A DNA stretch of 64,000 nucleotides from Candidatus Omnitrophota bacterium. Lineage in GTDB: Bacteria; Omnitrophota; Gorgyraeia; JAZDFF01. The position numbers and the translations under genes are program-made. Below are positions 1 to 32,988 of this stretch, piece after piece (positions within the stretch are counted from its first letter, which is position 1; each line of letters opens with the position of its first letter). A model generated the notes under the pieces. The model searched no databases. It worked only from the letters and a program-made list of their open reading frames with translations, and was not told the origin of the DNA. The stretch is from the NCBI GenBank assembly GCA_043808095.1, contig JAZDFF010000042.1, positions 38,667 to 102,666 of the forward strand. Direction: 5' to 3'.

Positions 1-871
1 TCCTCAGGGCAACTTTCTCGCCGGAGTTAGAGGGCAATATTGAAACCCTGAAATCCACCTCCCGGTCTTCGAACTTTATCTTAAAACGTCCGTCCTGAGG
101 AAGCCGGTGCTCGGCGATATCCAGGCAGGAGATAACCTTTACACGCGATACAATTGGAGCATGCAAACTTTTAGGCGGGGCCTCTATTTCCTGTAAAACA
201 CCGTCGATCCTTATCCTGACCCGCAGGCTATTCTCCAGCGGCTCAATTAAAATATCCGAGGCCTTGGCTTCAATTCCCTGCCTTAGGAATACATCAGTAA
301 TCTTTATAACTGGCGCTTCCTGGGTCAACTGAGCTAATTCTTGGACATCTAAGGAATCCGGCTTTTCTTGCCTGATGATTTCTAGTTTTTCAGCGTCGGA
401 CATATTCGCAATAATCTCTTCGATGGCCTCATAAGGCGACTCTCCGTAATATTGATTGATGGTTTCTAAGACTTCGTCGGCCTTGCCGATAATCGGGTTT
501 ATCTCATATCCGGTAAGGGTCTTTACCGTGTCAATAGCGAATATATTTAAGGGGTCGGCCATAGCCAAAGTAAGGGTGTTGCCCATCTTCGAAACAGGTA
601 TGATCTGATACATCTTGGCGGTCTCGCGAGGAACCATCTTAATGACATCGGGGTCAATCTTAAACCGTGAAAGGTTTATAGGGGGCATGCCTAAGCCTTC
701 GCTTAAGGCGATAAGAAGATCTTTTTGGTTTATATAGCCTAACTTTACTAAGATATCACTAAGCCGGCCGCCTTGTTTTTTCTGAACCTCAATGGCTTGG
801 TTTAGTTTATCCTCGGTTATAAGATTATTCTTGATTAATATCTCTTTTAAACGGTCTCTTAGAGAAATCAT
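1..871 (-). CDS. PilB/GspE-family type IV pilus / type II secretion assembly ATPase, N-terminal ~290 aa (3' end runs off window start)
   Basis: Manual minus-strand translation from ATG at 871..869 gives MISLRDRLKEILIKNNLITEDKLNQAIEVQKKQGGRLSDILVKLGYINQKD..., which carries two tandem MshEN/T2SSE_N-like 24-residue motifs. Near position 1 the same frame gives ...VDFRVSILPSNSGEKVALR, which matches the start of the GspE ATPase core. It is absent from the ORF track only because it is truncated by the window edge. Confidence 0.75.
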   Translation of the reverse strand, partial: MISLRDRLKEILIKNNLITEDKLNQAIEVQKKQGGRLSDILVKLGYINQKDLLIALSEGLGMPPINLSRFKIDPDVIKMVPRETAKMYQIIPVSKMGNTLTLAMADPLNIFAIDTVKTLTGYEINPIIGKADEVLETINQYYGESPYEAIEEIIANMSDAEKLEIIRQEKPDSLDVQELAQLTQEAPVIKITDVFLRQGIEAKASDILIEPLENSLRVRIRIDGVLQEIEAPPKSLHAPIVSRVKVISCLDIAEHRLPQDGRFKIKFEDREVDFRVSILPSNSGEKVALR

Positions 872-876
872 ATTTT

Positions 877-1323
877 CTATGCCTTATAACACCTGTCTAT
901 GGCCTTTTTTATATCCGAGGCGGTAGAGACGAATATCTGTACTTTTGAACCAGTAATCATCTCGATATCTTCAATCGCATCACTATTTAGAGGATTGGAC
1001 ATGGCAAGAGTAATATTATTTCCCAGTTTATCAATACAGATTAAACAGTATTGACGCGCAATATTTTCATTGATGATACGAGCAGTATCATAGTCGATCT
1101 CATAATTTCCCAGAGGTAGATAGGGAAAACCGTATTGGGCGGTTAATGCATGAGCAATATCTTCTTCTTTGGCAAAACCAAGTTCAACTAATATCTCACC
1201 AATAAGGCCGCCCTTTTCCTTTTGCATCTCGAGGGCTTTCTCAAGCTGCTTCTGATTGATGATAGCTCTTTCAATCAACAGCTCCCCTAACTGTTTAGCC
1301 AGTATCTTTTTTAAAGGAGACAT
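877..1323 (-). CDS. stand-alone MshEN / T2SSE_N (GspE N-terminal) domain protein, 148 aa
   Basis: QLGELLIERAIINQKQLEKALEMQ-KEKGG-LIGEILVELGFAKEEDIAHALTAQ fits the tandem 24-residue xLGxxLLxxGxLxxxxLxxxLxxQ motif, with the 5-residue spacer, described for c-di-GMP-binding MshEN domains. Position 1 of each motif is Q/L rather than R. The stop (879..877) lies 5 nt upstream of the pilB-like ATG. Confidence 0.7.
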   Translation of the reverse strand: MSPLKKILAKQLGELLIERAIINQKQLEKALEMQKEKGGLIGEILVELGFAKEEDIAHALTAQYGFPYLPLGNYEIDYDTARIINENIARQYCLICIDKLGNNITLAMSNPLNSDAIEDIEMITGSKVQIFVSTASDIKKAIDRCYKA

Positions 1324-1359
1324 ATTTTAGAACATCTTTTGCACTAAAAACAGAGTTTT

Positions 1360-1480
1360 AATTACTAATTCCTAAATCCTAATGCCTAATTAATTCTTTA
1401 ATGTCCAATTTTAAATTAGTCATTTGAGAATTTATAAATTCATTAGTCATTTGTCATTAGGTATTAAGAATTTTACTTCT
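1360..1480. repeat. family K AT-rich repeat (TAATGCCTAATT / ATTAGTCATTT units)
   Basis: Shares units with 14770..14870 (TCTTAATGCCTAATTT...AATTAGGAATTAGGGCTTAGGCATTAGTCATTTAAT). Confidence 0.6.
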
Positions 1481-1489
1481 TATTTTATC

Positions 1490-2908
1490 TTAGGCCTTGA
1501 CCTGATTTTTACCGTGGGCCTTGGCCTCAGAAAGTAATTGTCTGGCCTTAACCATCAGATCTTGGACCGTTACCCCGTCTATAGGATTCTCGCTTACGCC
1601 GGAGCTGACTGTCAAGTGTTTGCGTACATCAGTATCTTCACCAAAAGCAAATTCAATCTTTTTTCTCACATCCTCAGCCATATCCTTGGCCTGACGCTTG
1701 TTCTTCTCGGGCAAAACAAAGGCAAATTCATTATCGCCAATTCTGCCCACCCGGTCTATCTCACTGGCTGATTCCTCAAATATGACTGCTATCTTTTTCA
1801 GGGCAGATTCGGAGGATAATTCTCCGAAAAGCGTATGGTATCTCCTGAAATCATCGGCATTGAATATCACAAATGCGCAAGGCCTCTGATAAACAATTGC
1901 CCTCTTGATCTCTTCGTCTAATCTCGCCAGGATGTAACGATCGTTGTATAAGCCTGTCAGGGGGTCTTTTATCTCAAGTTTTTCCACTTTGTGATGCAGG
2001 AATCCATCTTCAACGGCAATGGAAACTTGCTTAACAAAGATGTCAACCATCTCAATCTCTTCGGGCTTATAAACAAAATCCTCCAGGTCATTACCGATAC
2101 CCAAAATTCCGCAGACCTCTCCATGCCTTAATATGGGAGTAACGACGGTATTGACCATAGCAAAAGATTTGCGCCAGGCATCAACCTCCGCAGAAGGCTT
2201 CATTTGACTATCTACAATCATTCTTTCGTTCTTTATAGCCAATTTTCCCAAGACGCCTTCGCCAAAATTTATTTTAATGGACATCAATTCTTTCGAGGCA
2301 TCTCCGTATATTGAGCGCATGGTTAATACGTCACTACCCTCATCCCTTAAGAGTAAAAAACATAATTTGGATTGACCAACCTGGATAATTTTTTCCGCAG
2401 TCATTTTGAGAATCTCTATTAACTCTGTGCCCTGGGTAATCAGCGAACTGATCTGAAGTAAACTCGACATGACGACAACGCGCTTATGAATCTCCGTATT
2501 TATTTCTTTGGTGCGCTCGGAATAGGACTTTAATTCATCCATATTACCCCGGATGCGCTGGGTAAGTTGATCCAAGGAGCGGCCCAAATCACCAATCTCA
2601 TCATCTCTAACCAGCCTAATCTTGTGGTTAATATCACCTTTAGCAATCATCTGGGCGTCTGCGCTTATCCTTACGATGTGGTCCACGATTTGCTTGAGGA
2701 TAAAGAATCCTATTAAACCAATGATGATAGTTATAGCGCTTACCCAGAAGATATTTTTCTTAAGGCCAAAGCTCAGCCACTCTACAGTAGGGAATATTAA
2801 ATTTAGTAAAATGAGAATGGGAATTATAGATAAAAGCGAAATAGAGACTAAAAGCTTTACACGTAGTCCTCGCGAGGCAAAAGAGGAACCCCTGGCTTTC
2901 TTTAACAT
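1490..2908 (-). CDS. membrane-anchored HAMP-GAF-GGDEF protein with degenerate active-site motif (RIGDNEF instead of R[YF]GG[DE]EF)
   Basis: It has two N-terminal TM helices, a HAMP-like segment (IAKGDINHKIRLVRDDEIGDLGRSLDQL), a GAF-like middle region and a C-terminal GGDEF fold (DPLTGLYNDRY...RIGDNEFAFVLP). The catalytic GG[DE]EF is replaced by GDNEF, and I could not find an RxxD I-site. Confidence 0.8.
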   Translation of the reverse strand: MLKKARGSSFASRGLRVKLLVSISLLSIIPILILLNLIFPTVEWLSFGLKKNIFWVSAITIIIGLIGFFILKQIVDHIVRISADAQMIAKGDINHKIRLVRDDEIGDLGRSLDQLTQRIRGNMDELKSYSERTKEINTEIHKRVVVMSSLLQISSLITQGTELIEILKMTAEKIIQVGQSKLCFLLLRDEGSDVLTMRSIYGDASKELMSIKINFGEGVLGKLAIKNERMIVDSQMKPSAEVDAWRKSFAMVNTVVTPILRHGEVCGILGIGNDLEDFVYKPEEIEMVDIFVKQVSIAVEDGFLHHKVEKLEIKDPLTGLYNDRYILARLDEEIKRAIVYQRPCAFVIFNADDFRRYHTLFGELSSESALKKIAVIFEESASEIDRVGRIGDNEFAFVLPEKNKRQAKDMAEDVRKKIEFAFGEDTDVRKHLTVSSGVSENPIDGVTVQDLMVKARQLLSEAKAHGKNQVKA

Positions 2909-2982
2909 AGCTACCTCTCCTTTTTAATGAGTACATCACTTACGGAGATTTAGCGACGTAAGTGATAGGTACGAATTAAATC

Positions 2983-3005
2983 CTTGACATCAAAGATGTC
3001 AAGGA
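2983..3005. repeat. family J palindrome CCTTGACATC-nnn-GATGTCAAGG
   Basis: Perfect 10-bp stem, 3-nt loop. Second copy at 45228..45252. Confidence 0.85.
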
Positions 3006-3044
3006 TAACTTGTCGTATTTATAACTTATTATGATTAATATAAT

Positions 3045-4832
3045 CTATAATTCGTTTATTGTCAATGCTTTTTGCAGATCGCGTTGTAATTTATGCCTGT
3101 CTTGGCCAAGATCAATATGCTCCCAGGGCAAGATTTCATCAAAAGACCTCCTGCGAAGAGCATAAAAGAAAGGGTCTATTCCTTGCTTATTGAAAGCCTC
3201 CATCCACAACGGGAAATTGAAGTATTCCCTCCAGCTATCAAATTTAGCCCCTTCCTGGAAGGCATTTAATATTACCTTGGCAATCCTACGGTCCCCCCGA
3301 CAAAGAACCGCTTCTAGAAAACCCATTTGAAAATCATGGAATTTTAAATTCACTAGATGCGGCCTACTAGACCTTAGTCGGGATATAAGATATTTTTTTT
3401 TATTCTCGAGGCTGGTTAAACTATCCATCTCTTGCCACTGAAAAGGCGTATGGCTCTTTGGGATAAAACAAGATATGCTTACGTTTATTACGGCAAGATG
3501 GCCGTCAATTTCTTTTCTTAATCTGGATAGGGCTACGGCAAGGTCAATAATCCCGTCTAGATCTTTTTCATTTTCCGTAGGTAGCCCGAGCATAAAATAG
3601 AGTTTCAGGTGTCGGTATCCACAGACGAATGCCTGATGGCTTACCTTGACCAATTCATCTAGATCTACATTTTTATTAATGACCTTTCTTAAACGCTCGG
3701 TTCCTGCCTCAGGCGCAAAAGTCAGGCCGCTTTTTCTTACTTTTGCTAAAAGTGCGGTTATATCACTCAATGAGCTCCTTGGTTTCAAAGAAGGCAGTGA
3801 TATCCCCACATATTTATCCTGGAAAAACTCCATCAATTCCTTAATTATCTCTTTTAATTTGGGATGGTCGCTTGAAGAAAGCGAAAGTAAAGACATCTCT
3901 TCATATCCGGTACTATTGTAACAGTCTTTGGCAAGCCTTAAGACAGAGTTAACAGACCTAGGCCGAGCTGGCCGATAAAAACAAAAAGCCTGACAAAATC
4001 TACAGCCACCAGGACATCCCCGCATGATCTCAAGCGTGATACGGTCATGAACTATCTGGATAAAAGGAACCAGCCACCGGGTCGGAAAAAATGCCTTGTC
4101 TAGATCATGGACTATCCGACGGATTATCTTAGTGGGAACGCTTCTTTGTCTTGGTGAAAATTTTTTAATCCTGCCATCCTCATTATATTCTACCTCATAT
4201 AAAGACGGAACGTACACGCCCTTTATCTTGGCTGACTCAAGTAAAAGCTTATCTTTTCGAAGGACGAGAGATGAAAGACGTTGGACGGTAAACTCCTTAT
4301 ATTTCTCGACCACCTCTAAGATCAATTCCTCTGCCTCGCCAATACAAAAGAGGTCAATAAAATCCGCCAGCGGCTCAGGATTAAGACAACAACAACCTCC
4401 GGCAATAATCAAAGGATGCCTGCTATCCCTATCTTTAGAAAGAAGCGGTATGCCGGATAAATCCAGGATATTTAATAGATTTGTATAATTAAGTTCATAT
4501 TGTAGGGAAAAACCGATTATATCAAATTCAGATAACGGCGTGTGCGTCTCGAGGGAAAAAAGCGGGATTTTATCTTTTCGTAAGATCTCTTCTAAATCCG
4601 TGTCCGGGGAAAATACCCTTTCGCAGGCAATATCGGATTGCGCATTTAAAAGCCCGTAGAGGATGCGCAGCCCCAGATGGCTCATGCCTACCTCATACAA
4701 ATCCGGGTAGCATAGGGCTATTTTGACTTTAGCATTATGGTGGTCTTTTCTGCTTACATTGTATTCATTACCGAGGTATCTGGCGGGTCTTTTTACTTTA
4801 GAGATAATCTCTTCGAAGTTAGTTAAGTTCAT
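3045..4832 (-). CDS. B12-binding-domain radical SAM protein (TIGR03960-like)
   Basis: The radical SAM CxxxCxxC motif RGCPGGCRFCQA is present, and the N-terminal region resembles a B12-binding Rossmann-like domain. Length is 595 aa. Confidence 0.75.
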   Translation of the reverse strand: MNLTNFEEIISKVKRPARYLGNEYNVSRKDHHNAKVKIALCYPDLYEVGMSHLGLRILYGLLNAQSDIACERVFSPDTDLEEILRKDKIPLFSLETHTPLSEFDIIGFSLQYELNYTNLLNILDLSGIPLLSKDRDSRHPLIIAGGCCCLNPEPLADFIDLFCIGEAEELILEVVEKYKEFTVQRLSSLVLRKDKLLLESAKIKGVYVPSLYEVEYNEDGRIKKFSPRQRSVPTKIIRRIVHDLDKAFFPTRWLVPFIQIVHDRITLEIMRGCPGGCRFCQAFCFYRPARPRSVNSVLRLAKDCYNSTGYEEMSLLSLSSSDHPKLKEIIKELMEFFQDKYVGISLPSLKPRSSLSDITALLAKVRKSGLTFAPEAGTERLRKVINKNVDLDELVKVSHQAFVCGYRHLKLYFMLGLPTENEKDLDGIIDLAVALSRLRKEIDGHLAVINVSISCFIPKSHTPFQWQEMDSLTSLENKKKYLISRLRSSRPHLVNLKFHDFQMGFLEAVLCRGDRRIAKVILNAFQEGAKFDSWREYFNFPLWMEAFNKQGIDPFFYALRRRSFDEILPWEHIDLGQDRHKLQRDLQKALTINEL

Positions 4833-5014
4833 GAATTATTTTACAACAAAAATGACTAAATTTATGTTAAATGAGGTTAAATAAAGTTAATTGAGGTTGT
4901 ATAAGGTTGCTTTTAAAAAAGCAACATCAGGAAACTTCATACAACATCAGATAACCTCATATAACCTTAAGGTAACAGAGTAAAATTCGCCTTGCTTATG
5001 TCTTGTGGCATTGC

Positions 5015-6133
5015 TCAGAAGACTATCTTCCTTCTGCCGATATTTAAGATTATCCCCAGATATAAAAAAGTAATAAATATGGATGAGCCGCCATAGCTCA
5101 TTAAAGGCAAGGCCAAACCTACAACCGGCATCATCCCCATGGTCATAGCGATATTGACCACTATCTGAAAAGTCAAAAGGCTGATAATGCCCGCGAGGAT
5201 TAATTGAGCGAAAGCATCATTTGTAGACTTATAAACTTCTACTACACGGTAAATAATAAAGAAATATAACAAGATAATAAGGCTGGCACCTAAAAATCCG
5301 AACTCCTCCCCTATTACCGAAAAAATAAAATCAGTATGACGTTCAGGTAAAAAATTAAGTTGATTCTGAGTCCCAGCCAGCCACCCTTTTCCCAGAAAAC
5401 CTCCCGAACCTATGGCAATCTTAGACTGGATAATAGTATAACCTGCACCAAGGGGGTCAAGATTAGGATTTAAAAAAACGAGCAACCTGGCTTTTTGATA
5501 CCCCTTTAATAGATGTAATAAAATCGGTGCTCCCCCTATTCCTATCACAAACATTGAAAAAATATATCTTAAATTTATGCCAGCAATTAAGAGCATCGCA
5601 AAGAATACTGGTATTAAACTTAAGGCGGCTCCGAGATGCGGTTCCTTAAATATCAAAAACATTGGTAAAATCAAAATCATCGATGGAAAAATCAGGTCTC
5701 TGAAAATTGGGACGCTAAATAAACTGTTTGAGTAGAAATGCATATCGAGCCTCTTTTTAGAAAAATGCTTTGCCAGGACTAAGATTACGGACAGCCTTGC
5801 CAGTTCAGAAGGCTGAAAATTTAATCCTAAAATATCCAGCCAGCGCTGTGCGCCTTGCCGGGGTCGAGCTACCACCAAGACCAAGATGAGAAGAATGCAA
5901 CTCAATATATAAAACCACCAGGCTAAGTCATTGAATCTGCGATAATTAAAATTCATCATTAATACGAGAAAAATTATGCCGATACTTAACCAAATGACTT
6001 GTCTGGTGAGAAAATCATTCTGAAACGAATGACCCACCTCGTTGGTGCTGCTGTAAATAGCCAATAGGCTAATGACCGAGATAAGTAAAACCGAAATTAA
6101 TATTCCGAAATCTAGATTGCCTCTTGCGCGCAT
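5015..6133 (-). CDS. rodA: peptidoglycan glycosyltransferase RodA (FtsW/RodA/SpoVE family)
   Basis: Polytopic membrane protein with SEDS signatures (GSGGFLGKGW, PERHTDFIFSVIGEEFGF). It lies downstream of mrdA in the mre cluster. Confidence 0.9.
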   Translation of the reverse strand: MRARGNLDFGILISVLLISVISLLAIYSSTNEVGHSFQNDFLTRQVIWLSIGIIFLVLMMNFNYRRFNDLAWWFYILSCILLILVLVVARPRQGAQRWLDILGLNFQPSELARLSVILVLAKHFSKKRLDMHFYSNSLFSVPIFRDLIFPSMILILPMFLIFKEPHLGAALSLIPVFFAMLLIAGINLRYIFSMFVIGIGGAPILLHLLKGYQKARLLVFLNPNLDPLGAGYTIIQSKIAIGSGGFLGKGWLAGTQNQLNFLPERHTDFIFSVIGEEFGFLGASLIILLYFFIIYRVVEVYKSTNDAFAQLILAGIISLLTFQIVVNIAMTMGMMPVVGLALPLMSYGGSSIFITFLYLGIILNIGRRKIVF

Positions 6134-6207
6134 AATTTTACTTAGAACCCTTTGTTTACAGTTTAAACTCTAAGCACTAAACTCTTCCCGCACAACTTGT
6201 AAAATAT

Positions 6208-6235
6208 GGCGGGATCCCGCAAAGCGGGAAAATCC
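6208..6235. repeat. REP-like palindrome family A (GCGGGATCCCGCAAAGCGGGAAAAT)
   Basis: Also at 21654..21678 (inverted), 22509..22538 and 38087..38115 (variant). A degenerate copy is at 36665..36715. Confidence 0.85.
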
Positions 6236-6423
6236 TAAACAATTTGTACTATTCAAAAGTCGAGTTAACAGTTTGAAGCTCGGTTTTTCGGTATGGATGC
6301 TCGTATCGATGCTCGTCTTGGAAACTCGTCTTATGTTTTATCTAGCTTCGAGCATCTAGCTTCGATATCCTTAGATTGTACTCAAGATACCGTCCTGAGC
6401 CTGTCGAAGGACGATACCAGCAT

Positions 6424-6514
6424 CCCTGCCTCACCGGCCCTTAGGAATTTTACATTGTAAAATTCCAAGGACTAAGTCCCGGAAATTCTCCGAATTTCTC
6501 GGGGCAGGCAGGGA
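6424..6514. repeat. ~90-nt palindromic repeat element (family C), copy 1, inverted relative to copies 2 and 3
   Basis: Near-identical to 30260..30355 and 49429..49517. Core CCGAGAAATTCGGAGAATTTCCGGGACTTAGTCCTTGGAATTTTACAATGTAAAATTCCTAAGGGCC, bracketed by CCTGCCTG.../...CAGGCAGG arms. Confidence 0.9.
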
Positions 6515-6671
6515 CAACCTAAGACGAATATCGACACCTTGGCTGTTGTGATATAGATTGTAAACACATCTCTTGAATTATACACGTAGTCGAACCATTA
6601 GGATTTCGGCACTTCGACTTTGCTCAGTGCCGATGGTGAGCGAAGTCGAACCATCGGATTTAGGATTTTAA

Positions 6672-8393
6672 CTAATTCGCTATAAACCCGCCTTTAATCA
6701 TCTCTTCAATTAACTGTCGGGATAAGGTGACTGCCGCTTGGCTGCCTCCGCCGTGCTCTAATAAAACTACAAAGACATACCGAGGATTCTCAAAAGGGAA
6801 AAAACCCGAAAACCAGGCATGAGGTTTTCCGGAACCTACCTGGGCAGTTGCGGTTTTTCCGGCGATCTTTAGATTATCAAACTTCAGGCAATTTGCTGTC
6901 CCCCGGGAATCCTCGACCACCCTTAATAAGCCGCTTTTTACCGTCGCCAATATACTCTTATCGAGGCCAAGGTTTATTGGTAGTGGCCGGACTAAGGCCT
7001 TGTTATCTACAGTCCTTATTATATGAGGCGTGATTAAATACCCGCCGTTAGCCACAACTGCTATCATCCTCACCATCTGGAGGGGACTAACTAAGACCTC
7101 ACCCTGACCAATGGAAAGATTGGCAGTATCACCATCATACCAATGCTCACCTCGGCTTGATAGCCTCCATCTTCGGGAAGGTATAAATCCGCTGGATTCA
7201 TTTGGTAGCTCAATTCCCGTAGGCCGACCAAATCCTAGTTTTGTGGCCCAATTATAAATAGCGTCCGGGCCGGCCAAAATACCCAACCGGTAAAAAAAGG
7301 CATTGCAGGAGTGGCACAAGGCATCTTCTATATTCTCATCGCCATGCACCGACCAACAGGAAAATTTCCTCTGACCAACAATCAAACCGCCTGTACATAA
7401 AAAATTCGTATTTTTTGAAATCTTCTTTGTGCTTAATCCTGCGAGGGATGTAACTATTTTAAATAAAGAACCTGCACTGTAGCGGCCGCTTATGGCCCGG
7501 TTTAATAAAGGCGCATCAGAATTATTCAAAATCAGTCGGCGCCTGGCTAACGAATCCCGATTTTTCTGGCTAAAGATGTTGGGGTCAAAACCCGGAGAAC
7601 TAACCAGGCTCAATATCTCTGCGCTTGTCGGGTCCATAACAATAATTGCACCGGTTTTACCCTCAAGGAGATTGTAGCAGATACGCTCTAGGTCAAGATC
7701 AATAGTCAACTGCACATCTTTTCCTCTTTGAGGCAGTTTCGTACCCAAGACCCTGACTTGCCTTCCTAAATTGTCTACCTCAATCTGAGTACCTCCGCCT
7801 TCTGCGCGCAGATACGCATCTAATTTTTCCTCTATGCCATCGCAGCCCACCGTATCCTTAACTGAATAACCATAATTTTTTAATCTCGTAAGTTTAAAGG
7901 GGTCGATTTTACCAAGATATCCCAAGATATGGCTGGCTATCTTAAAATTAGGATAGGCACGCTGCGGATCTTGCTGGATGATAACGCCGTCCAACTCAAG
8001 ACTATTATTCTCTATGGCCACCGCCTCATCCCGGGAGATGTCTTGTTTTATCACTACTGGAGCAAAGGCAAGGCCGTACCCTTTTTGATATGCCTTGCTT
8101 AAATCAGACGGATCTTCAGCTAATATCTGGGCCAACCTTAAAAAAATATGATTTTTTTTGCTCAAACCCTGGGGGATCAAACTAAGATCAAAAGACATGC
8201 GGCTGGTTGCCAAAATCCTGCCTTTTCGGTCAAAGATATTGCCGCGCATTGCGCTCTGGGGAATAACGCGGATGGAGTTCTTGCGGCTAAGTTCTAAATA
8301 ATAGTGACTACGGATTACTTGGGTGTAAGATAGGCCCAGGAGCAGACTTAAAAAACAAATCAGGATGATTATCTCTAAAATTCTAAGACGCAT
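6672..8393 (-). CDS. mrdA: penicillin-binding protein 2 (elongasome transpeptidase)
   Basis: N-terminal TM helix, SxxK (SAGSLFK), SxN (SCN) and KTG (KTGTA) motifs. Sits between mreD and rodA. Confidence 0.9.
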   Translation of the reverse strand: MRLRILEIIILICFLSLLLGLSYTQVIRSHYYLELSRKNSIRVIPQSAMRGNIFDRKGRILATSRMSFDLSLIPQGLSKKNHIFLRLAQILAEDPSDLSKAYQKGYGLAFAPVVIKQDISRDEAVAIENNSLELDGVIIQQDPQRAYPNFKIASHILGYLGKIDPFKLTRLKNYGYSVKDTVGCDGIEEKLDAYLRAEGGGTQIEVDNLGRQVRVLGTKLPQRGKDVQLTIDLDLERICYNLLEGKTGAIIVMDPTSAEILSLVSSPGFDPNIFSQKNRDSLARRRLILNNSDAPLLNRAISGRYSAGSLFKIVTSLAGLSTKKISKNTNFLCTGGLIVGQRKFSCWSVHGDENIEDALCHSCNAFFYRLGILAGPDAIYNWATKLGFGRPTGIELPNESSGFIPSRRWRLSSRGEHWYDGDTANLSIGQGEVLVSPLQMVRMIAVVANGGYLITPHIIRTVDNKALVRPLPINLGLDKSILATVKSGLLRVVEDSRGTANCLKFDNLKIAGKTATAQVGSGKPHAWFSGFFPFENPRYVFVVLLEHGGGSQAAVTLSRQLIEEMIKGGFIAN

Positions 8394-8395
8394 GA

Positions 8396-8902
8396 TTATT
8401 TGAAAGAGATAAAAAGCGGCTGCCTGGCTACTGGCTTAAGCACCTTCTTCAAGACGACGAATATTAAAGGTAGGATAACAACAGTATAAATAGCCGAAGG
8501 CAATATGGTATAAACCAATGCCCTTAAAAAGATTAAATCTGTGTAGAATATCTTGAGAATGAAATAATGGGCGATTTCATAGATTAAAACCGATAATGAT
8601 CCAATAAGAATTTTGGAAGTCGTGGTTTCTTTATAGAGGTATTTATTAAGATAACCCAGGACTAAACCGAGCAGCCCGAGACTCAAGGTATTTATTCCGA
8701 ATAAATCGACACTTAAGAGATCCTCTAAAACCCCCGCCAGGCATCCGTAGAGACCCGCCTCCTGAGGGGGACAGTTAAGCCCAAGATAAATTATAAGTAT
8801 TATCGAAAGATTCGGCTTTATATTATTAAAAAACACACCCAAACCTAAGGCCTCAAGAAAGACGAAGACCACCAACAGGATAAATACTTTTAATCTATTC
8901 AT
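8396..8902 (-). CDS. mreD: rod shape-determining protein MreD
   Basis: Small polytopic membrane protein immediately downstream of mreC, overlapping its end by 8 nt. Confidence 0.75.
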   Translation of the reverse strand: MNRLKVFILLVVFVFLEALGLGVFFNNIKPNLSIILIIYLGLNCPPQEAGLYGCLAGVLEDLLSVDLFGINTLSLGLLGLVLGYLNKYLYKETTTSKILIGSLSVLIYEIAHYFILKIFYTDLIFLRALVYTILPSAIYTVVILPLIFVVLKKVLKPVARQPLFISFK

Positions 8903-9677
8903 TAAGAACGACTATGACCTCTTCGAGTTTGGAAAAATCGACTGCAGGTTTAATGAGGGCGATTTTATTTAGGCCGCTTGCATCAAGCTCTACAGACTTA
9001 ACCTCTCCGATCAGTATCCCCCTGGGGAATGAACCATTTAACCCGGAACTGATAACCAAATCTCCTGATACTACATCGCTATCTTTATCCAGATAATACA
9101 TCTGGCAAAAACCTGAGAGCCTGCCTGAGATTATGCCTTGCTCGCGGCTACGCTGGATAAGGGCAGCGATCTTCAAATTCGGGTCGTTGATTAAAATAAC
9201 CTTACTGCTTGAGTCTCCGGTTTCAAAAATCTTCCCTACCGCGCCACCGGGCGATATGACTGCACAGTCTTTGCGGATATTATCGTTATTGCCTCTATCA
9301 ATAATCAGACTGAAAAACCAGTTGATAGGGTCTCTGCCAATTACCCTTGCAACCGTACTGCGAAAAGATTGAGCCCTGCGAAAAGAAAGAATTTTACTTA
9401 GGCGTTCGTCCTCTTTCAGGATTTCCAGATTGATAATCTTTTTTTGTCTTGTCCAGCCTAATTGCCTTTTTAAGGCGAGGTTTTCTTTTAGGATTGCTCG
9501 ATAGGAAAAAATGGACTTTATCTCGTTTATAAAAAAATTGATAGGCCTTAATGGCAGGCTTAAAAAATCCAGAGATTTTGCTCTCACTATTTGGAATTGC
9601 TTTTGCAGGAAGGTAAAGACTAAGGCAAGAACTACTACGACAAGAAATACCGCAATTAATTTTTTATATTTAGCCAC
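8895..9677 (-). CDS. mreC: rod shape-determining protein MreC
   Basis: N-terminal TM helix, a coiled-coil segment and a C-terminal beta domain (GDLVISSGLNGSFPRGILIGEV). Located between mreB and mreD. Confidence 0.85.
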   Translation of the reverse strand: MAKYKKLIAVFLVVVVLALVFTFLQKQFQIVRAKSLDFLSLPLRPINFFINEIKSIFSYRAILKENLALKRQLGWTRQKKIINLEILKEDERLSKILSFRRAQSFRSTVARVIGRDPINWFFSLIIDRGNNDNIRKDCAVISPGGAVGKIFETGDSSSKVILINDPNLKIAALIQRSREQGIISGRLSGFCQMYYLDKDSDVVSGDLVISSGLNGSFPRGILIGEVKSVELDASGLNKIALIKPAVDFSKLEEVIVVLNE

Positions 9678-9695
9678 TCAATAATATAAAACAAA

Positions 9696-10781
9696 TTATA
9701 ATTCAGACCTAAGAGGAACAACTACTCGTTTTAAGTATTTTATCTCATCTAATACTTTGCCAGTACCCAAGGCAACAGCAGTAACCGGATCGTCAGACAA
9801 GTGTACAGTCAAACCCGTCTCTTCAGAAACGAGTTTGTCGATATTGCGAAGCAATGAAGTACCGCCGGCAAAGACAATGCCTTTATCAATTAAGTCTGCT
9901 GCCAATTCTGGGGGGATTCTTTCCAAGGTAATCTTGATCGTCTCTAAGATTGCCCGAATAGGCTCTTTAAGCGCATCCCTCACTTCTTCTGAGGTGATAG
10001 TCACTTTCTTGGGTAAACCGGCAACCAGGTCTCTTCCTTTAACCTCAAGACTCATCTCTTCATCTAAAGGATAGGCCGAACCAATCTTTATCTTGATATC
10101 TTCGGCAGTACGTTCGCCAATCATGAGATTATAATTCTTCTTCATATACTCAGTGATGGCTAAATCCATTTCATCGCCGCCAATACGAATGGATTTAGAG
10201 AATACTATCCCGGCTAAAGAGATGACGGCAATCTCAGTTGTGCCTCCGCCAATATCAATAATCATATTCCCTGATGGCTCTTCGATGGGTAGGCCTACGC
10301 CAATGGCCGCAGCAATCGGCTCTTCAATTAAATAGACTTTTCGGGCTCCGGCACGCTCTGCCGAATCTATAACCGCCCGTTTTTCTACCTCGGTAATTCC
10401 TGAAGGGATAGCAATTACTAGCCTAGGAGGAACCATTACCCGGCGTTTATGCAGATTCCTGACCTTTTTGATAAAATAACGCAGCATCGCCTCAGTGACT
10501 TCGAAATCCGCAATCACGCCGTCTTTCATCGGCCTGATAGCAACGATATTTCCGGGAGTACGTCCCAACATACGCTTTGCCTCTTCACCAACTGCCAGGA
10601 CATTGGAAGTCCCTTTTTCTATGGCTACTACCGAAGGCTCGCACAAGACAATGCCATCGCCTTTTACATAAACCAAGGTAGTAGCAGTGCCCAAATCAAT
10701 GCCCATATCGTTAGAGAACGCCTCGCTAAAAAACTCAAGGGCTTTTTTGCCCACATTAAGTATTTTTTGAAATTTAACCAT
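9696..10781 (-). CDS. mreB: rod shape-determining actin homologue MreB
   Basis: Actin/Hsp70 fold signatures: [28 protein letters not shown] and [17 protein letters not shown]. Confidence 0.95.
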
Positions 10782-10836
10782 ACTTACTCCTGTTCTGGTA
10801 ATATATCAGACTCCAAACTTACTGTCAATTAAAATC

Positions 10837-12207
10837 TTAGGTAGTATTAGGGCCTGCTTTGATTTTATTGAGGGCGCCCGCAAAATCCGGAAAGGATTTA
10901 GTGATGCAGCTGATATCATCCAACTCTGTTTTACCTTTGGCAGCCAGTCCCGCAATAATCATGCTCATCGCAGTGCGATGGTCTTCGTAACTAAGTACTT
11001 TTGCTCCTTCTAAAATACCACGGCCTGAAATTACAATTTCTTCTTGCTCTTGAATCTTTACTTTGGATCCGTGCTGTTTTACTTTGCGTACCTTTATATG
11101 GGCTCCCATAAGACTTAAGTTTGTAACCATAGAATTAATCCTGTCAGTTTCTTTAACCCTTAACTCCTCCACTCCCCGAATAACTGTATCACCCTTGGCA
11201 AAACATGCCGCAACCATAACAATAGGCAACTCATCAATTATGGCCGGGATCTCAAGACTTTCTATGGTTGTCGGCTTTAGGCGGCTGGACTTTACCAGGA
11301 TATCAGCAATCGGCTCAGAGCCAATGATTACACAGGGATGATTAAACAAGCGGATATCCGCGCCCATCCTCTTTAAGACATTTAAAATGCCTGTGCGGGT
11401 TGGGTTTACGCCTACAGATCTAAGCAAAATTTCTGAGCCGTCAATGATGGCAGCTGCAACCATAAAAAATACCGCTGAGGAGATATCCGAAGGAACCTTA
11501 ATCAGGCGGGGTGAAAATAATTCCTTACCGCCTCTTATGTTCACCTTAAGCGTATCAATATGGATATCCACGCCAAAAATCTTGAGCATCCTCTCGGTGT
11601 GGTCTCGGGACTGGATTACTTCACTAACTACTGTTGTCCCTTTAGGATATAAACCAGCTAATAAAATCGCAGATTTGACCTGGGCGCTGGGAACGGACAA
11701 TTTATATTGGATGGGCTTTAGACTCCTTCCCTTTATCTCCAAGGGCGCAAATTCCTCGGTTTTATTTTTGGCTTTTTTAACTTTGGATTTTATCTTGGCA
11801 CCCATAAGTCGCAAGGGTTCAATTACCCTTTTCATTGGTCGACTCGATAAGGATTTGCCGCCTTTTAAAACACTCTTAAAATCTTGAGCAGACAACAAAC
11901 CAGAAAGTAAGCGCATGGAGGTTGCGGATTCTCCCATATCCAGCTGTCTTTTTGGCGCATTGAGACCGCCTAAACCCACCCCATTAACTAAAACAAAGGA
12001 GGATTCCGTCTTTATCTTTACTCCCATCGAAGAAAATGCATTAATAGTACAAATGCAATCATCGCTAAACAAAAAGTTTTCAATGCGAGTATCTCCTTTA
12101 GAAATGGAACTGAGGATTATGGCACGGTGGGATATTGACTTATCGCCCGGTAGTGAAAGTTTTCCCCTCAGGCTCGTTATGGGATGAACGAGATATTTTT
12201 GCGGCAT
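10837..12207 (-). CDS. aroA: 3-phosphoshikimate 1-carboxyvinyltransferase (EPSP synthase)
   Basis: LSLPGDKSISHRAIILSSIS N-terminal signature and EPSP synthase length. Contains a lysine-rich internal insertion. Confidence 0.9.
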   Translation of the reverse strand: MPQKYLVHPITSLRGKLSLPGDKSISHRAIILSSISKGDTRIENFLFSDDCICTINAFSSMGVKIKTESSFVLVNGVGLGGLNAPKRQLDMGESATSMRLLSGLLSAQDFKSVLKGGKSLSSRPMKRVIEPLRLMGAKIKSKVKKAKNKTEEFAPLEIKGRSLKPIQYKLSVPSAQVKSAILLAGLYPKGTTVVSEVIQSRDHTERMLKIFGVDIHIDTLKVNIRGGKELFSPRLIKVPSDISSAVFFMVAAAIIDGSEILLRSVGVNPTRTGILNVLKRMGADIRLFNHPCVIIGSEPIADILVKSSRLKPTTIESLEIPAIIDELPIVMVAACFAKGDTVIRGVEELRVKETDRINSMVTNLSLMGAHIKVRKVKQHGSKVKIQEQEEIVISGRGILEGAKVLSYEDHRTAMSMIIAGLAAKGKTELDDISCITKSFPDFAGALNKIKAGPNTT

Positions 12208-12212
12208 GAAGA

Positions 12213-12983
12213 TTACGGTTTGGTTACTCGACAGCCTTCTTTAATCTGATCTTTTTGGATTGGGGGTAAGAAATTGGCAGCAGAGAGTGCTTCGTAAACC
12301 TTTTCAACTTTTAATTTACCGATGGATTTATCTTTATTATTGTAGACAGTAAACATATCGCCAACACTTATACCTGCTTTTCTTCCGAAATTGACGATGG
12401 CAAAATCATATTCCCGGTTTACGCTCAAAATCTTTCCTTCTAAAATTCCAGCCCGCGATGCCTCGCTAGAAGAACTCTGTTTGACTACAATCTTCTCAAG
12501 CTGCACTCCCTCCGAGGACTTGACTTCTAAATCCTTAATCTTGGCCTCTAAATCTTTCTTGATATTATTCAGGTTCTCGAGTTCTTTTGATTTAGCCTCT
12601 AAATCGCCCTTGGCCTTTTCTAATTGTTTAAAGACATCTTCGCGGGTTGACTTTTCCTGTTTCAATTGCGCCTCGAGACCATTTATTTCAATGCTTAATT
12701 TATCTTTATTGGTCTTTTCAGTCTGAAGTTCGCCTGAAGCAGCGGCAAGCTGGGTATTGGCATCGGTTAATTGCACCTGCAGTCTATCCACCTCTTCCTT
12801 AGTCGACTGTAAGTTCTTGTCTAAATTACTTCTCATCGCCTCAAGACTCTGCGACTTTGCCTCCAGCGATTTTCTCTTATCGATCTCCTGTTTTAGGAGA
12901 TAACCTGCGCCTACGGCAAGGCCCAGAGAAATAAAGGTTACTAATACCAAAAGACCAACTAAAACCTTTGCGCTAGAACCCAT
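12213..12983 (-). CDS. hypothetical membrane-anchored coiled-coil protein with small C-terminal beta-rich domain
   Basis: N-terminal TM helix (VLVGLLVLVTFISLGLAVGAGYLL), ~150 aa of heptad-like Q/E/K/L-rich sequence, and a C-terminal ~70 aa segment (ILSVNREYDFAIVNFGRKAGISVGDMFTVY...). I do not recognise any family. Confidence 0.5.
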   Translation of the reverse strand: MGSSAKVLVGLLVLVTFISLGLAVGAGYLLKQEIDKRKSLEAKSQSLEAMRSNLDKNLQSTKEEVDRLQVQLTDANTQLAAASGELQTEKTNKDKLSIEINGLEAQLKQEKSTREDVFKQLEKAKGDLEAKSKELENLNNIKKDLEAKIKDLEVKSSEGVQLEKIVVKQSSSSEASRAGILEGKILSVNREYDFAIVNFGRKAGISVGDMFTVYNNKDKSIGKLKVEKVYEALSAANFLPPIQKDQIKEGCRVTKP

Positions 12984-31736: not shown

Positions 31737-31765
31737 TTGACATAAGCAGAATTTTATGTTAAAGT
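31737..31765 (+). promoter_or_regulatory. putative sigma70-like promoter for the GAF-GGDEF gene
   Basis: TTGACA (31737..31742), 17-nt spacer, TAAAGT (31760..31765). If real, the CDS starts at the second Met (31798). Confidence 0.3.
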
Positions 31766-32988
31766 CCCTGCTTATATACCTTAATCAAAACTTGACCATG
31801 CTAAATAACAATATCAATAAAAGTGATATCGAATACGAACTGGAAAAAACTAGATTAGAGCTCTCCATCCTTTATGAGATCTCGAATGCGATGCGCCGCA
31901 CTTTAAAGCTCGATGAGATCCTCTATATCATCTTGACCGGTGTCACCTCCCATGTGGGATTAGGGTTTAACCGGGCGATGTTACTTTTAGTGGATGAAGG
32001 CAGCCAATTCTTAGAAGGCAAGATGGGTATTGGACCAGATACAGGTGATGAGGCAGGCCGCATCTGGAGGCATATTGAGGCTAAGGATATGAAACTCGAG
32101 GATTTAGTTAATGCCTACGAGGCCTCGGGAAAGATGTTTGATTCTCAGTTCAACCGACTGGTACAGAGTTTTAGAATTCCCTTAAAAGAAGACGGCGGAA
32201 TCCTTGCTATTACCGCCTTGGATGACCGACCTATGCATATAAAGAAACAATCCGATGCCTTCTACGATAATGAACCAATCCTAAAAAAATTAAATACCCA
32301 GGAATTTGTCACTGTGCCTTTAAGGGCTAAAGACAGTGTAATTGGTGTGATTCTAGCAGACAACATCTTTACTCAAAGAGAGATTACTAAAGATGATATC
32401 GAGATACTTACATTGTTTTCCAACCAGGCAGGCCTGGCAATCGAAAATTCCCGTCTGTATGAAAAGACCTTAATCAAGACAAATATTGATGCCTTGACCG
32501 GCCTGTGGAACCATGGTTATTTCCAGTTTAAACTTAACGAGGAAATAAAAAAGGTAAAAGAACAAACTCATCCCCTAAATCTAATTATGATAGATATTGA
32601 TTACTTTAAGAATTATAATGATGGCCTAGGACATCAAGAAGGAGACCGCATCTTAGTAGAGATAGCTAAGGTCTTAAAGGATTCTTCGAGAAAATCAGAT
32701 TATGTATGCAGATATGGTGGTGAGGAATTTGCTATAATCCTGCCGCAGACGACAAAACAGGAGGCGCTCTTACTTTCGGAAAGAATTAGGCAGCATGTCC
32801 AGAATCATCGTTTTAAACATGAAGAAATCCAGCCAGAAAAAGAAATCACGGTAAGTATTGGCCTGGCGACTTTTCCTGAAGACGCACAAACAAAAGATCA
32901 GCTTATTTCTTGCGCGGATACTTCGCTTTACGAGGCTAAAAAGACGGGAAAAAACAAAGTCTGTTATTACTCTGCAGTAAAAATCTAA
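31756..32988 (+). CDS. cytoplasmic GAF-domain diguanylate cyclase (GGDEF with canonical RYGGEEF and RxxD I-site)
   Basis: GAF-like N-terminal region. DALTGLWNHGYFQ...RKSDYVCRYGGEEFAIILP has both an intact active site and an I-site. The true start may be the second Met at 31798, because the first ATG overlaps the putative -10. The 3' end overlaps the smc 3' end convergently by 4 nt. Confidence 0.85.
   Translation: MLKSLLIYLNQNLTMLNNNINKSDIEYELEKTRLELSILYEISNAMRRTLKLDEILYIILTGVTSHVGLGFNRAMLLLVDEGSQFLEGKMGIGPDTGDEAGRIWRHIEAKDMKLEDLVNAYEASGKMFDSQFNRLVQSFRIPLKEDGGILAITALDDRPMHIKKQSDAFYDNEPILKKLNTQEFVTVPLRAKDSVIGVILADNIFTQREITKDDIEILTLFSNQAGLAIENSRLYEKTLIKTNIDALTGLWNHGYFQFKLNEEIKKVKEQTHPLNLIMIDIDYFKNYNDGLGHQEGDRILVEIAKVLKDSSRKSDYVCRYGGEEFAIILPQTTKQEALLLSERIRQHVQNHRFKHEEIQPEKEITVSIGLATFPEDAQTKDQLISCADTSLYEAKKTGKNKVCYYSAVKI

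Follow-up and report, generated by a model that had tools for sequence, protein, structure and literature searches.

Can the sensor of cyclic diguanosine monophosphate (c-di-GMP) be encoded apart from the pilus motor that it would control? The question is raised by a stretch of contig JAZDFF010000042.1 of Candidatus Omnitrophota bacterium (64,000 nucleotides in full, hereafter the window). Positions 1–2908 of its minus strand carry three consecutive genes: for a membrane protein with HAMP, GAF, and GGDEF domains, for a protein of 148 amino acids (aa) that contains nothing but an MshEN domain, and, as far as its 5′ part, for a probable pilus extension ATPase, PilB1. A preliminary description of this DNA had placed the genes in this way, and the sequence, the open reading frames (ORFs), and the Pfam/NCBIfam matches agree with it; the E-values of the models for the three proteins, 1e-19 to 1e-29, exceed chance by far. 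Widespread c-di-GMP receptor domains number only two or three, and MshEN is one of them. We read the locus as the regulatory front part of a type IVa pilus operon that encodes a split (MshEN)2-PilB, the 148-aa protein being the c-di-GMP sensor acting in trans, and we give this reading, drawn from sequence comparison, a probability of slightly more than one half (about 0.55).

The stand-alone MshEN protein and the built-in copies of the ATPases

MshEN was the sole domain matched in the 148-aa protein. The Pfam model PF05157 covered residues 64–147 with 70.2 bits (cut-off 23.1), and its E-value of 1.4e-19 bears out the T2SSE_N/MshEN assignment made in the preliminary description. NF053729, the NCBIfam model of the 53-residue c-di-GMP motif, covered residues 11–63 with 61.9 bits (cut-off 38). 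The two 24-residue motifs already reported, residues 11–34 (QLGELLIERAIINQKQLEKALEMQ) and 40–63 (LIGEILVELGFAKEEDIAHALTAQ), were found with a spacer of exactly 5 residues, KEKGG. The AlphaFold2 (AF2) model of the protein, with a predicted local distance difference test (pLDDT) value of 90.5, had the four-helix MshEN_N and alpha/beta MshEN_C fold; its best Foldseek match in the PDB was c-di-GMP-bound MshE (5HTL; template modeling (TM) score of 0.78–0.83, root-mean-square deviation of 2.3 Å), followed by GSPII-A and GSPII-B of PilF (GSPII-B in the c-di-GMP-bound form) and XpsE-N. The protein is 100% identical to V1674_07140, annotated in NCBI as a hypothetical protein of a Candidatus Omnitrophota metagenome-assembled genome (MAG). 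Approximately 3,800 homologues were found in a 90%-identity database (E ≤ 1e-5); among the best 120 of these, nearly all were stand-alone proteins, most of them 145–154 aa long, with 65–85% identity.

In MshE, c-di-GMP is bound chiefly through Leu triangles, Gly3 backbone amides, and Gln24 side chains; the replacement G11L abolishes binding and G40I makes it 72-fold weaker, single changes of Leu cost more than 10-fold, and changes of Arg9 less than fivefold (Wang et al. 2016). In the 2024 study of Thermus PilF, domain GSPII-B, with K and L at position 1, bound c-di-GMP at 6 nM, GSPII-C, with P at one position 1, bound it at approximately 460 nM, and GSPII-A did not bind it; its authors widened the consensus to (R/K/L)LG and regarded a hydrophobic residue in place of Arg as predictive of very high affinity. 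The 148-aa protein of the window has the contact residues at positions 2, 3, 17, 21, and 24 of both motifs, with Ile at positions 2 and 17 of motif 2. The occupancy of these positions in 68 species-level sequences is given in Table 1. In 82 database sequences, 34 columns were invariant, including L12, G13, L27, L40, G42, I56, L60, and Q63, and the contact residues were invariant or at least 90% conserved.

Arg is absent at position 1: the window protein has Q in motif 1 and L in motif 2. The preliminary description took this as a loss of nucleotide binding that would turn the protein into a decoy, which is probably backwards; the suggestion lacks support because changes of Arg9 in MshE had less than a fivefold effect, GSPII-B binds at 6 nM with K and L, and the other contacts are kept. 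The position-1 residues of the stand-alone proteins (Q or P; L) resemble those of GSPII-B (K; L) and GSPII-C (P): L is allowed by the extended consensus from the PilF work and P by the relaxed pattern, and Q by neither. The detached MshEN domain probably keeps a binding-competent, high-affinity 53-residue c-di-GMP site.

Table 1. Residues at the c-di-GMP contact positions of the stand-alone MshEN proteins (n = 68) and of the N-termini of PilB1 (n = 61) and PilB2 (n = 52)
Position	Stand-alone, motif 1	Stand-alone, motif 2	PilB1	PilB2
1	Q 41, P 21	L 65	R/K mostly kept	K/N/T/R (motif 1); P/D/E/S (motif 2)
L/I2	65	60	mostly L/F/I	mostly I/L/F
G3	67	66	T/I/L/K/S (motif 1); S/V/R/A, only 2 Gly (motif 2)	I/L/V (motif 1); R/K (motif 2)
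G10	57	68	mostly K	K 35 (motif 1); G 27, N 13 (motif 2)
L/I17	64	68	mostly L	mostly L
L21	63	65	mostly L	L 21 (motif 1); L 35 (motif 2)
Q24	65	67	mostly Q (motif 1); G or Y (motif 2)	Q 30 (motif 1); E 24, Q 20 (motif 2)

The ATPase gene begins, as had been noted, 5 nt after the MshEN gene, and its product belongs to the PilB/GspE family. The fragment present in the window (residues 1–290) matched MshEN at residues 60–145 and positions 3–110 of the T2SSE model at residues 183–290 (100.8 bits); its best NCBIfam model was TIGR02538 (PilB), with 235.9 bits on 290 residues against a full-length cut-off of 675. The fragment is 70% identical to the PilB1 (571 aa) of a related locus, L001, and 39% identical to PilB2. 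The full-length L001 orthologue has a T2SSE match of 448 bits, the motifs GPTGSGKT and IIMVGEIRD, and four Cys, and both PilB1 and PilB2 of the relatives retain the Walker A, Walker B, and four-Cys motifs.

A second pair of MshEN motifs, also claimed previously, is indeed present at the N-terminus of PilB1, but the second motif had been quoted with 23 residues; its position 24 is Gly. In this copy, Arg stays at position 1, K (motif 1) and S (motif 2) take the place of Gly3, and motif 2 has G instead of Gln24. The copies in PilB1 and PilB2 are predicted not to bind c-di-GMP because they have lost Gly3 (Table 1), a residue critical in MshE. PilB2 reached only 26.5 bits with NF053729, under the cut-off of 38. 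In outgroup PilBs that have no stand-alone gene, (K/R)LG is retained. We strongly predict that the small protein is the sensor and that the copies in the ATPases are worn out.

Conservation of the gene pair and its natural fusion

A scan of one genome per species yielded 80 loci, the neighbors of which were mapped by tblastn and ORF calling; neighbor counts refer to the 63 loci with enough flanking sequence. The stand-alone MshEN ORF, 139–165 aa long, was intact and separate from pilB in 67 species-level loci. PilB was encoded directly downstream of it in 59 of the 63 loci and a HAMP-GAF-GGDEF homologue directly upstream in 51. The dead GGDEF domain that had seemed to add to the oddity of the locus is in fact adjacent, but the arrangement is no one-off, being the standard layout of the locus across Omnitrophota. 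In the closest species pairs, dN/dS (the ratio of nonsynonymous to synonymous substitution rates) of the small MshEN gene was 0.00–0.04 at dS of 0.1–1.6; this is at or below the values for the ATPases (0.015–0.06), and the GGDEF gene had 0.03–0.11.

The continuation of pilB beyond the start of the window and the genes after it were read from the relatives. The gene order there is radical SAM, GGDEF, MshEN, PilB1 (approximately 570 aa), PilB2 (approximately 568 aa), PilC (T2SSF match), and pilin (N_methyl match). MshEN is followed by PilB in the closest relative (L089), in a 73%-identical MAG, and in more distant stand-alone relatives (42–48% identity), which have a PilT-family ATPase upstream. 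The pilus machine is probably of type IVa. A PilT-family ATPase is encoded directly upstream of the MshEN gene in L046 (4937–6004), L056 (4918–5997), and L086 (3817–4884), with TIGR01420 matches of 461–485 bits, and L084 has at this place (321–1442) a PilT-type candidate with a Pfam T2SSE match only; PilT lies in the pilus locus in some lineages only. The partner protein of L086 is HAMP-GAF only (292 aa) and has no GGDEF domain. The MshEN–PilB linkage holds where the GGDEF gene or PilT is absent: what stays constant is the MshEN–PilB pair, and the GGDEF protein, though frequent, can be dispensed with.

An exhaustive search of the cluster representatives revealed numerous short stand-alone proteins, proteins with several MshEN domains, and a fusion protein. 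The fusion, P0134 (765 aa; L083 6001–8298, a metagenome contig), consists of a sensor-type MshEN, a degenerate MshEN, and a PilB1-type ATPase. The first domain of P0134 shares 45% identity with the stand-alone protein and retains Gly3 in both motifs, Gly3 is degenerate in its second MshEN domain, and the remainder (T2SSE) aligns with full-length PilB1 at 49% identity versus 42% for PilB2. A PilB2-like gene and pilC follow the fusion gene, and glycosyltransferase and polysaccharide-deacetylase genes precede it. P0134 thus joins counterparts of exactly the two neighboring genes in their genomic order, a Rosetta-stone fusion that would link them functionally. Proteins of (MshEN)2- and (MshEN)4-T2SSE architecture, as well as the coupling of MshEN to many outputs, are listed in Supplementary Table 4 of Wang et al. 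(2016). It is because of the fusion and the known (MshEN)2–4-T2SSE architectures that we regard the locus as a split multi-MshEN PilB.

In P0007, P0011, P0012, P0041, and P0065 (202–221 aa), the 53-residue module occurs in tandem, (MshEN_N)2-MshEN_C, and NF053729 gave 105 bits in two stretches. Two further proteins, P0163 (723 aa) and P0154 (454 aa), combine a sensor-type MshEN (48–50% identity with the stand-alone protein) with partners other than an ATPase; inspection by eye suggests a long C-terminal region in one case and something like a DnaA-like AAA region in the other.

Proposed mechanism, known systems, and alternatives

In the mechanism that we propose, c-di-GMP would be made elsewhere, e.g., by the intact GAF-GGDEF protein encoded at 31.7–33.0 kb of the window, and would load the small MshEN protein; the loaded protein would dock on the N-terminal region of PilB1, possibly also of PilB2, and would in this state gate pilus extension. 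The membrane protein with HAMP, GAF, and dead GGDEF domains could be a signal-input or scaffold subunit, with a role like that of FimX. The sequences establish the domain identities, the conservation of the site, the synteny, the purifying selection, and the natural fusion; ligand binding, physical interaction, and the direction of regulation are what we infer in this scheme.

Cis MshEN sensors, multi-MshEN ATPases, small receptors of the PA3740 type, FimX, and paired extension ATPases (PilB/TfpB) are known already. MshE of Vibrio cholerae (5HTL) and the PilBs of Myxococcus and Clostridium share the domain, the 24+5+24 motif, and the predicted fold with the Omnitrophota protein; in them, c-di-GMP gates extension through a sensor in cis, whereas for Omnitrophota a sensor in trans is proposed. 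PilF of Thermus thermophilus, (MshEN)3-T2SSE, resembles the Omnitrophota locus in having several MshEN domains of unequal binding competence before one PilB-type ATPase, and its high-affinity domain has, like the stand-alone protein, residues other than Arg (K, L) at position 1. Unlike in (MshEN)n-T2SSE proteins, the binding-type domain of Omnitrophota is a separate product (TAG and 5 nt before the next gene), and the attached domains have no Gly3; the one-polypeptide form is present only in a relative, as P0134. PA3740 of Pseudomonas aeruginosa (MshEN-xT2SSE_N1), a small MshEN-type protein reported to bind c-di-GMP, is a precedent for a stand-alone receptor (Wang et al. 2016), but its C-terminal half is a highly diverged T2SSE_N1, and the papers give no pilB-adjacent placement for it. 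A similar chain of a degenerate GGDEF protein, a small adaptor, and the N-domain of PilB is formed by FimX–PilZ–PilB of Xanthomonas and Pseudomonas (7LKM, 7LKN, 7LKO), and the PilB N-domain of that complex structurally matches the model of the 148-aa protein. The small protein of Omnitrophota is, unlike the adaptor of the FimX chain, an MshEN paralogue of the PilB N-domain, and Pfam and NCBIfam gave no EAL or PilZ match in any of the three proteins; the likeness is functional and does not imply homology.

Several observations weigh against a trans sensor. Both motifs of the stand-alone protein lack Arg and Lys at position 1, and Gln in motif 1 lies outside both the published relaxed set [RKPN] and the extended set (R/K/L). 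The N-terminus of PilB1 keeps Arg/Lys at this position and passes NF053729 with 54.3 bits (cut-off 38), a model that cannot separate the stand-alone protein from PilB1 (62 vs. 54 bits), the degeneracy of the latter being judged from the Gly3 positions and not from the model; PilB1 may still bind c-di-GMP, and Ser at Gly3 of motif 2 might be tolerated. P0134 shows an association with PilB1 but not the direction or nature of regulation, and the GGDEF gene, missing in 12 of the 63 loci and reduced to HAMP-GAF in L086, is not obligatory. If the stand-alone MshEN protein were a ligand-blind adaptor or decoy and the PilB1 N-terminus the real sensor, the residues at position 1 would be accounted for; we nevertheless consider this unlikely, since a ligand-blind domain is not expected to hold L2, G3, L17, L21, and Q24 near-invariant in 68 species or to duplicate its 53-residue module, Leu at position 1 of motif 2 is the state of the 6-nM domain GSPII-B, and PilB1 and PilB2 have no Gly3, whose replacement abolishes binding.

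Equally doubtful is a c-di-GMP receptor that acts on a target other than PilB (the GGDEF protein, PilT, PilC, or an unrelated process, as in the proposal for PA3740), adjacency then reflecting co-regulation. The many outputs to which MshEN domains are coupled, the PilT-family ATPase directly upstream in several lineages, and the frequent GGDEF neighbor would fit such a target; however, the tightest linkage is that with PilB, even where the GGDEF gene or PilT is absent, and the natural fusion joins the domain to a PilB1-type ATPase and to no other protein. We rate as slightly less probable still that a shared trans subunit selects which motor engages the pilus platform—PilB1, PilB2, or, where pilT adjoins, the retraction ATPase—and that the dead-GGDEF protein receives or positions this subunit; if true, the choice of motor would depend on a second messenger and on that common subunit, in place of cis gating of one ATPase. 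The probability that the 148-aa ORF is a functionless, decaying remnant of a duplicated pilB 5′ end, as had also been considered, is negligible: that it shares 35–40% identity with the N-terminal regions of its neighbors PilB1 and PilB2 would suit a duplication, but the remnant is refuted by the conservation of the intact ORF in 67 loci and by the strong purifying selection seen in its dN/dS, along with the 34 invariant columns and the confidently predicted fold.

As a split PilB with its sensor in trans, the locus would be new in its arrangement. No detached MshEN gene before pilB is described in the open-access literature searched, which included the architecture table of the original MshEN paper and the 2024 review of PilB cofactors; this agrees with the preliminary description, although absence there is no proof. 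Relative to this literature, the novelty lies in the phylum-wide separate MshEN gene before pilB in combination with the complementary decay of the built-in domains and a dead-GGDEF membrane partner. The same review regards as still unresolved how N-terminal ligand binding alters PilB activity. If the sensor is split from the motor and the built-in copies have decayed, sensor and ATPase could be expressed, titrated, and mutated independently, the sensor–motor interface could be mapped, and the tandem PilB1/PilB2 would test whether one sensor serves two motors. A likely function would also be assigned to a very common "hypothetical protein" of Omnitrophota. These bacteria have ultra-small, possibly host-dependent cells, and pili may play a central part in how they live. 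The arrangement is a variation inside a well-understood framework and not a new principle.

The GGDEF proteins and the surroundings of the locus

In the upstream membrane protein, Pfam identified HAMP at residues 73–120, GAF at 162–300, and GGDEF at 314–469 (94 bits), and two hydrophobic segments lie near the N-terminus (approximately 14–40 and 51–72). Its active-site motif is G391-D-N-E-F395, and SEID stands in place of the RxxD I-site nine residues upstream; both the degenerate motif and the missing I-site had been noticed earlier. None of the 55 aligned GGDEF sequences (that of the window and 54 orthologues) had GG[DE]EF, the pentapeptide drifting among GDNEF, GDDEF, SDDEF, GPNKL, SSDTL, and others. 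D315, N322, and the patch of residues 311–344 (LE..D.LTGLYN......RL.EEI.R....QRPC) were invariant or nearly so in these sequences, and the patch may serve the dead domain as a conserved surface for interactions or for binding the GTP base. RxxD is missing from the subclade of the window protein, which has S/TExD instead, and occurs in 16 sequences, mostly of a more distant subclade, five residues before the dead motif. The HAMP-GAF-GGDEF protein is regarded as an ancient non-enzymatic protein because GG[DE]EF is absent from all 55 sequences, yet the gene is under purifying selection. An active GGDEF domain in the relatives, which would form a local pair of diguanylate cyclase and receptor like DgcJ–NfrB, was ruled out by the same count.

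PelD consists of a membrane anchor, a GAF domain, and a degenerate GGDEF domain with an RxxD I-site. In the literature it is named as an inactivated-enzyme c-di-GMP receptor. The upstream GGDEF protein shares with it the membrane anchor, GAF, and a catalytically dead GGDEF, and the RxxD-keeping subclade has the PelD-type receptor arrangement. Unlike PelD, the protein of the window has SEID and HAMP, its output would be a pilus and not a polysaccharide, and it gave no match to the PelD model.

The separate GAF-GGDEF protein has an intact GGEEF, which aligns opposite GDNEF of the degenerate protein, and a Pfam GGDEF match of 177.5 bits. It is likely an active diguanylate cyclase, and its presence in the window means that the organism likely makes c-di-GMP. 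Its frame is the sole large plus-strand ORF in 64 kb that are otherwise almost all minus-strand; GC skew is negative throughout the window. The coordinates of the features are collected in Table 2.

Table 2. Features of the locus and of the remaining window (coordinates in the window)
Feature	Position	Strand	Basis or remark
pilB1, predicted type IVa pilus extension ATPase, first 290 codons	1..871	-	cut at window edge
53-residue motif region in PilB1, residues 7–59: RLKEIL...EVQ-KKQGG-RLSDIL...LSEG	695..853	-	
Spacer from TAG of the MshEN gene (877–879) to ATG of pilB1 (869–871), 5 nt	872..876	-	
Stand-alone MshEN protein, 148 aa: MshEN_N four-helix c-di-GMP module and MshEN_C (T2SSE_N1)	877..1323	-	PF05157, NF053729
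53-residue c-di-GMP signature of the stand-alone MshEN protein, residues 11–63	1135..1293	-	two 24-residue motifs and KEKGG
AT-rich intergenic spacer between the GGDEF and MshEN genes, 166 nt	1324..1489	-	holds 12-nt direct repeat
Membrane HAMP-GAF-GGDEF protein with catalytically degenerate GGDEF, 472 aa	1490..2908	-	Pfam HAMP, GAF, GGDEF
GDNEF at the GG[DE]EF active-site position, residues 391–395	1724..1738	-	
Perfect 12-bp hairpin between the radical-SAM and GGDEF genes	2980..3006	-	RNA fold
Separate GAF-GGDEF protein, intact GGEEF, outside the pilus locus	31741..32985 (stop-to-stop frame)	+	motif scan, Pfam

A block of mreB, mreC, mreD, PBP2, and rodA was found upstream of the pilus module. 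Together with the Radical_SAM_N2 gene (3045..12240 of the window; also L001 and L002), this block is syntenic with the module across Omnitrophota. The Pfam survey of the window at 9.7–40 kb found housekeeping genes only and no more pilus genes.

The gap between the MshEN gene and pilB ranges from -11 to 183 nt in the related loci. Most of them have -10 to +60 nt from the GGDEF gene to the MshEN gene, versus 166 nt in the window; the closest relative has a long spacer between MshEN and pilB instead. The 166-nt spacer contains a 12-nt direct repeat, ATTAGTCATTTG, at 1415 and 1442. Scans for promoter and terminator consensus over 700–3200 gave counts not above those of shuffled sequences; a weak promoter-like match at 1457–1429, in the same spacer, belongs to a kind of match not enriched over shuffles. 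The hairpin ATCCTTGACATC-TTT-GATGTCAAGGAT alone stands out, with -21.1 kcal/mol and a z-score of -6.9; it is followed by TTTAATT and has the radical-SAM stop codon on one side and the start of the GGDEF gene on the other. The transcription unit probably has its 5′ limit here, and the hairpin could be a terminator or an operator.

Two divergent loci lack the GGDEF gene and have, upstream of MshEN, small ORFs (L068 3664–4059 and L069 5267–5707) that begin with RRKFIRL or RRYPRE; these sequences look like candidate PilZ RxxxR motifs.

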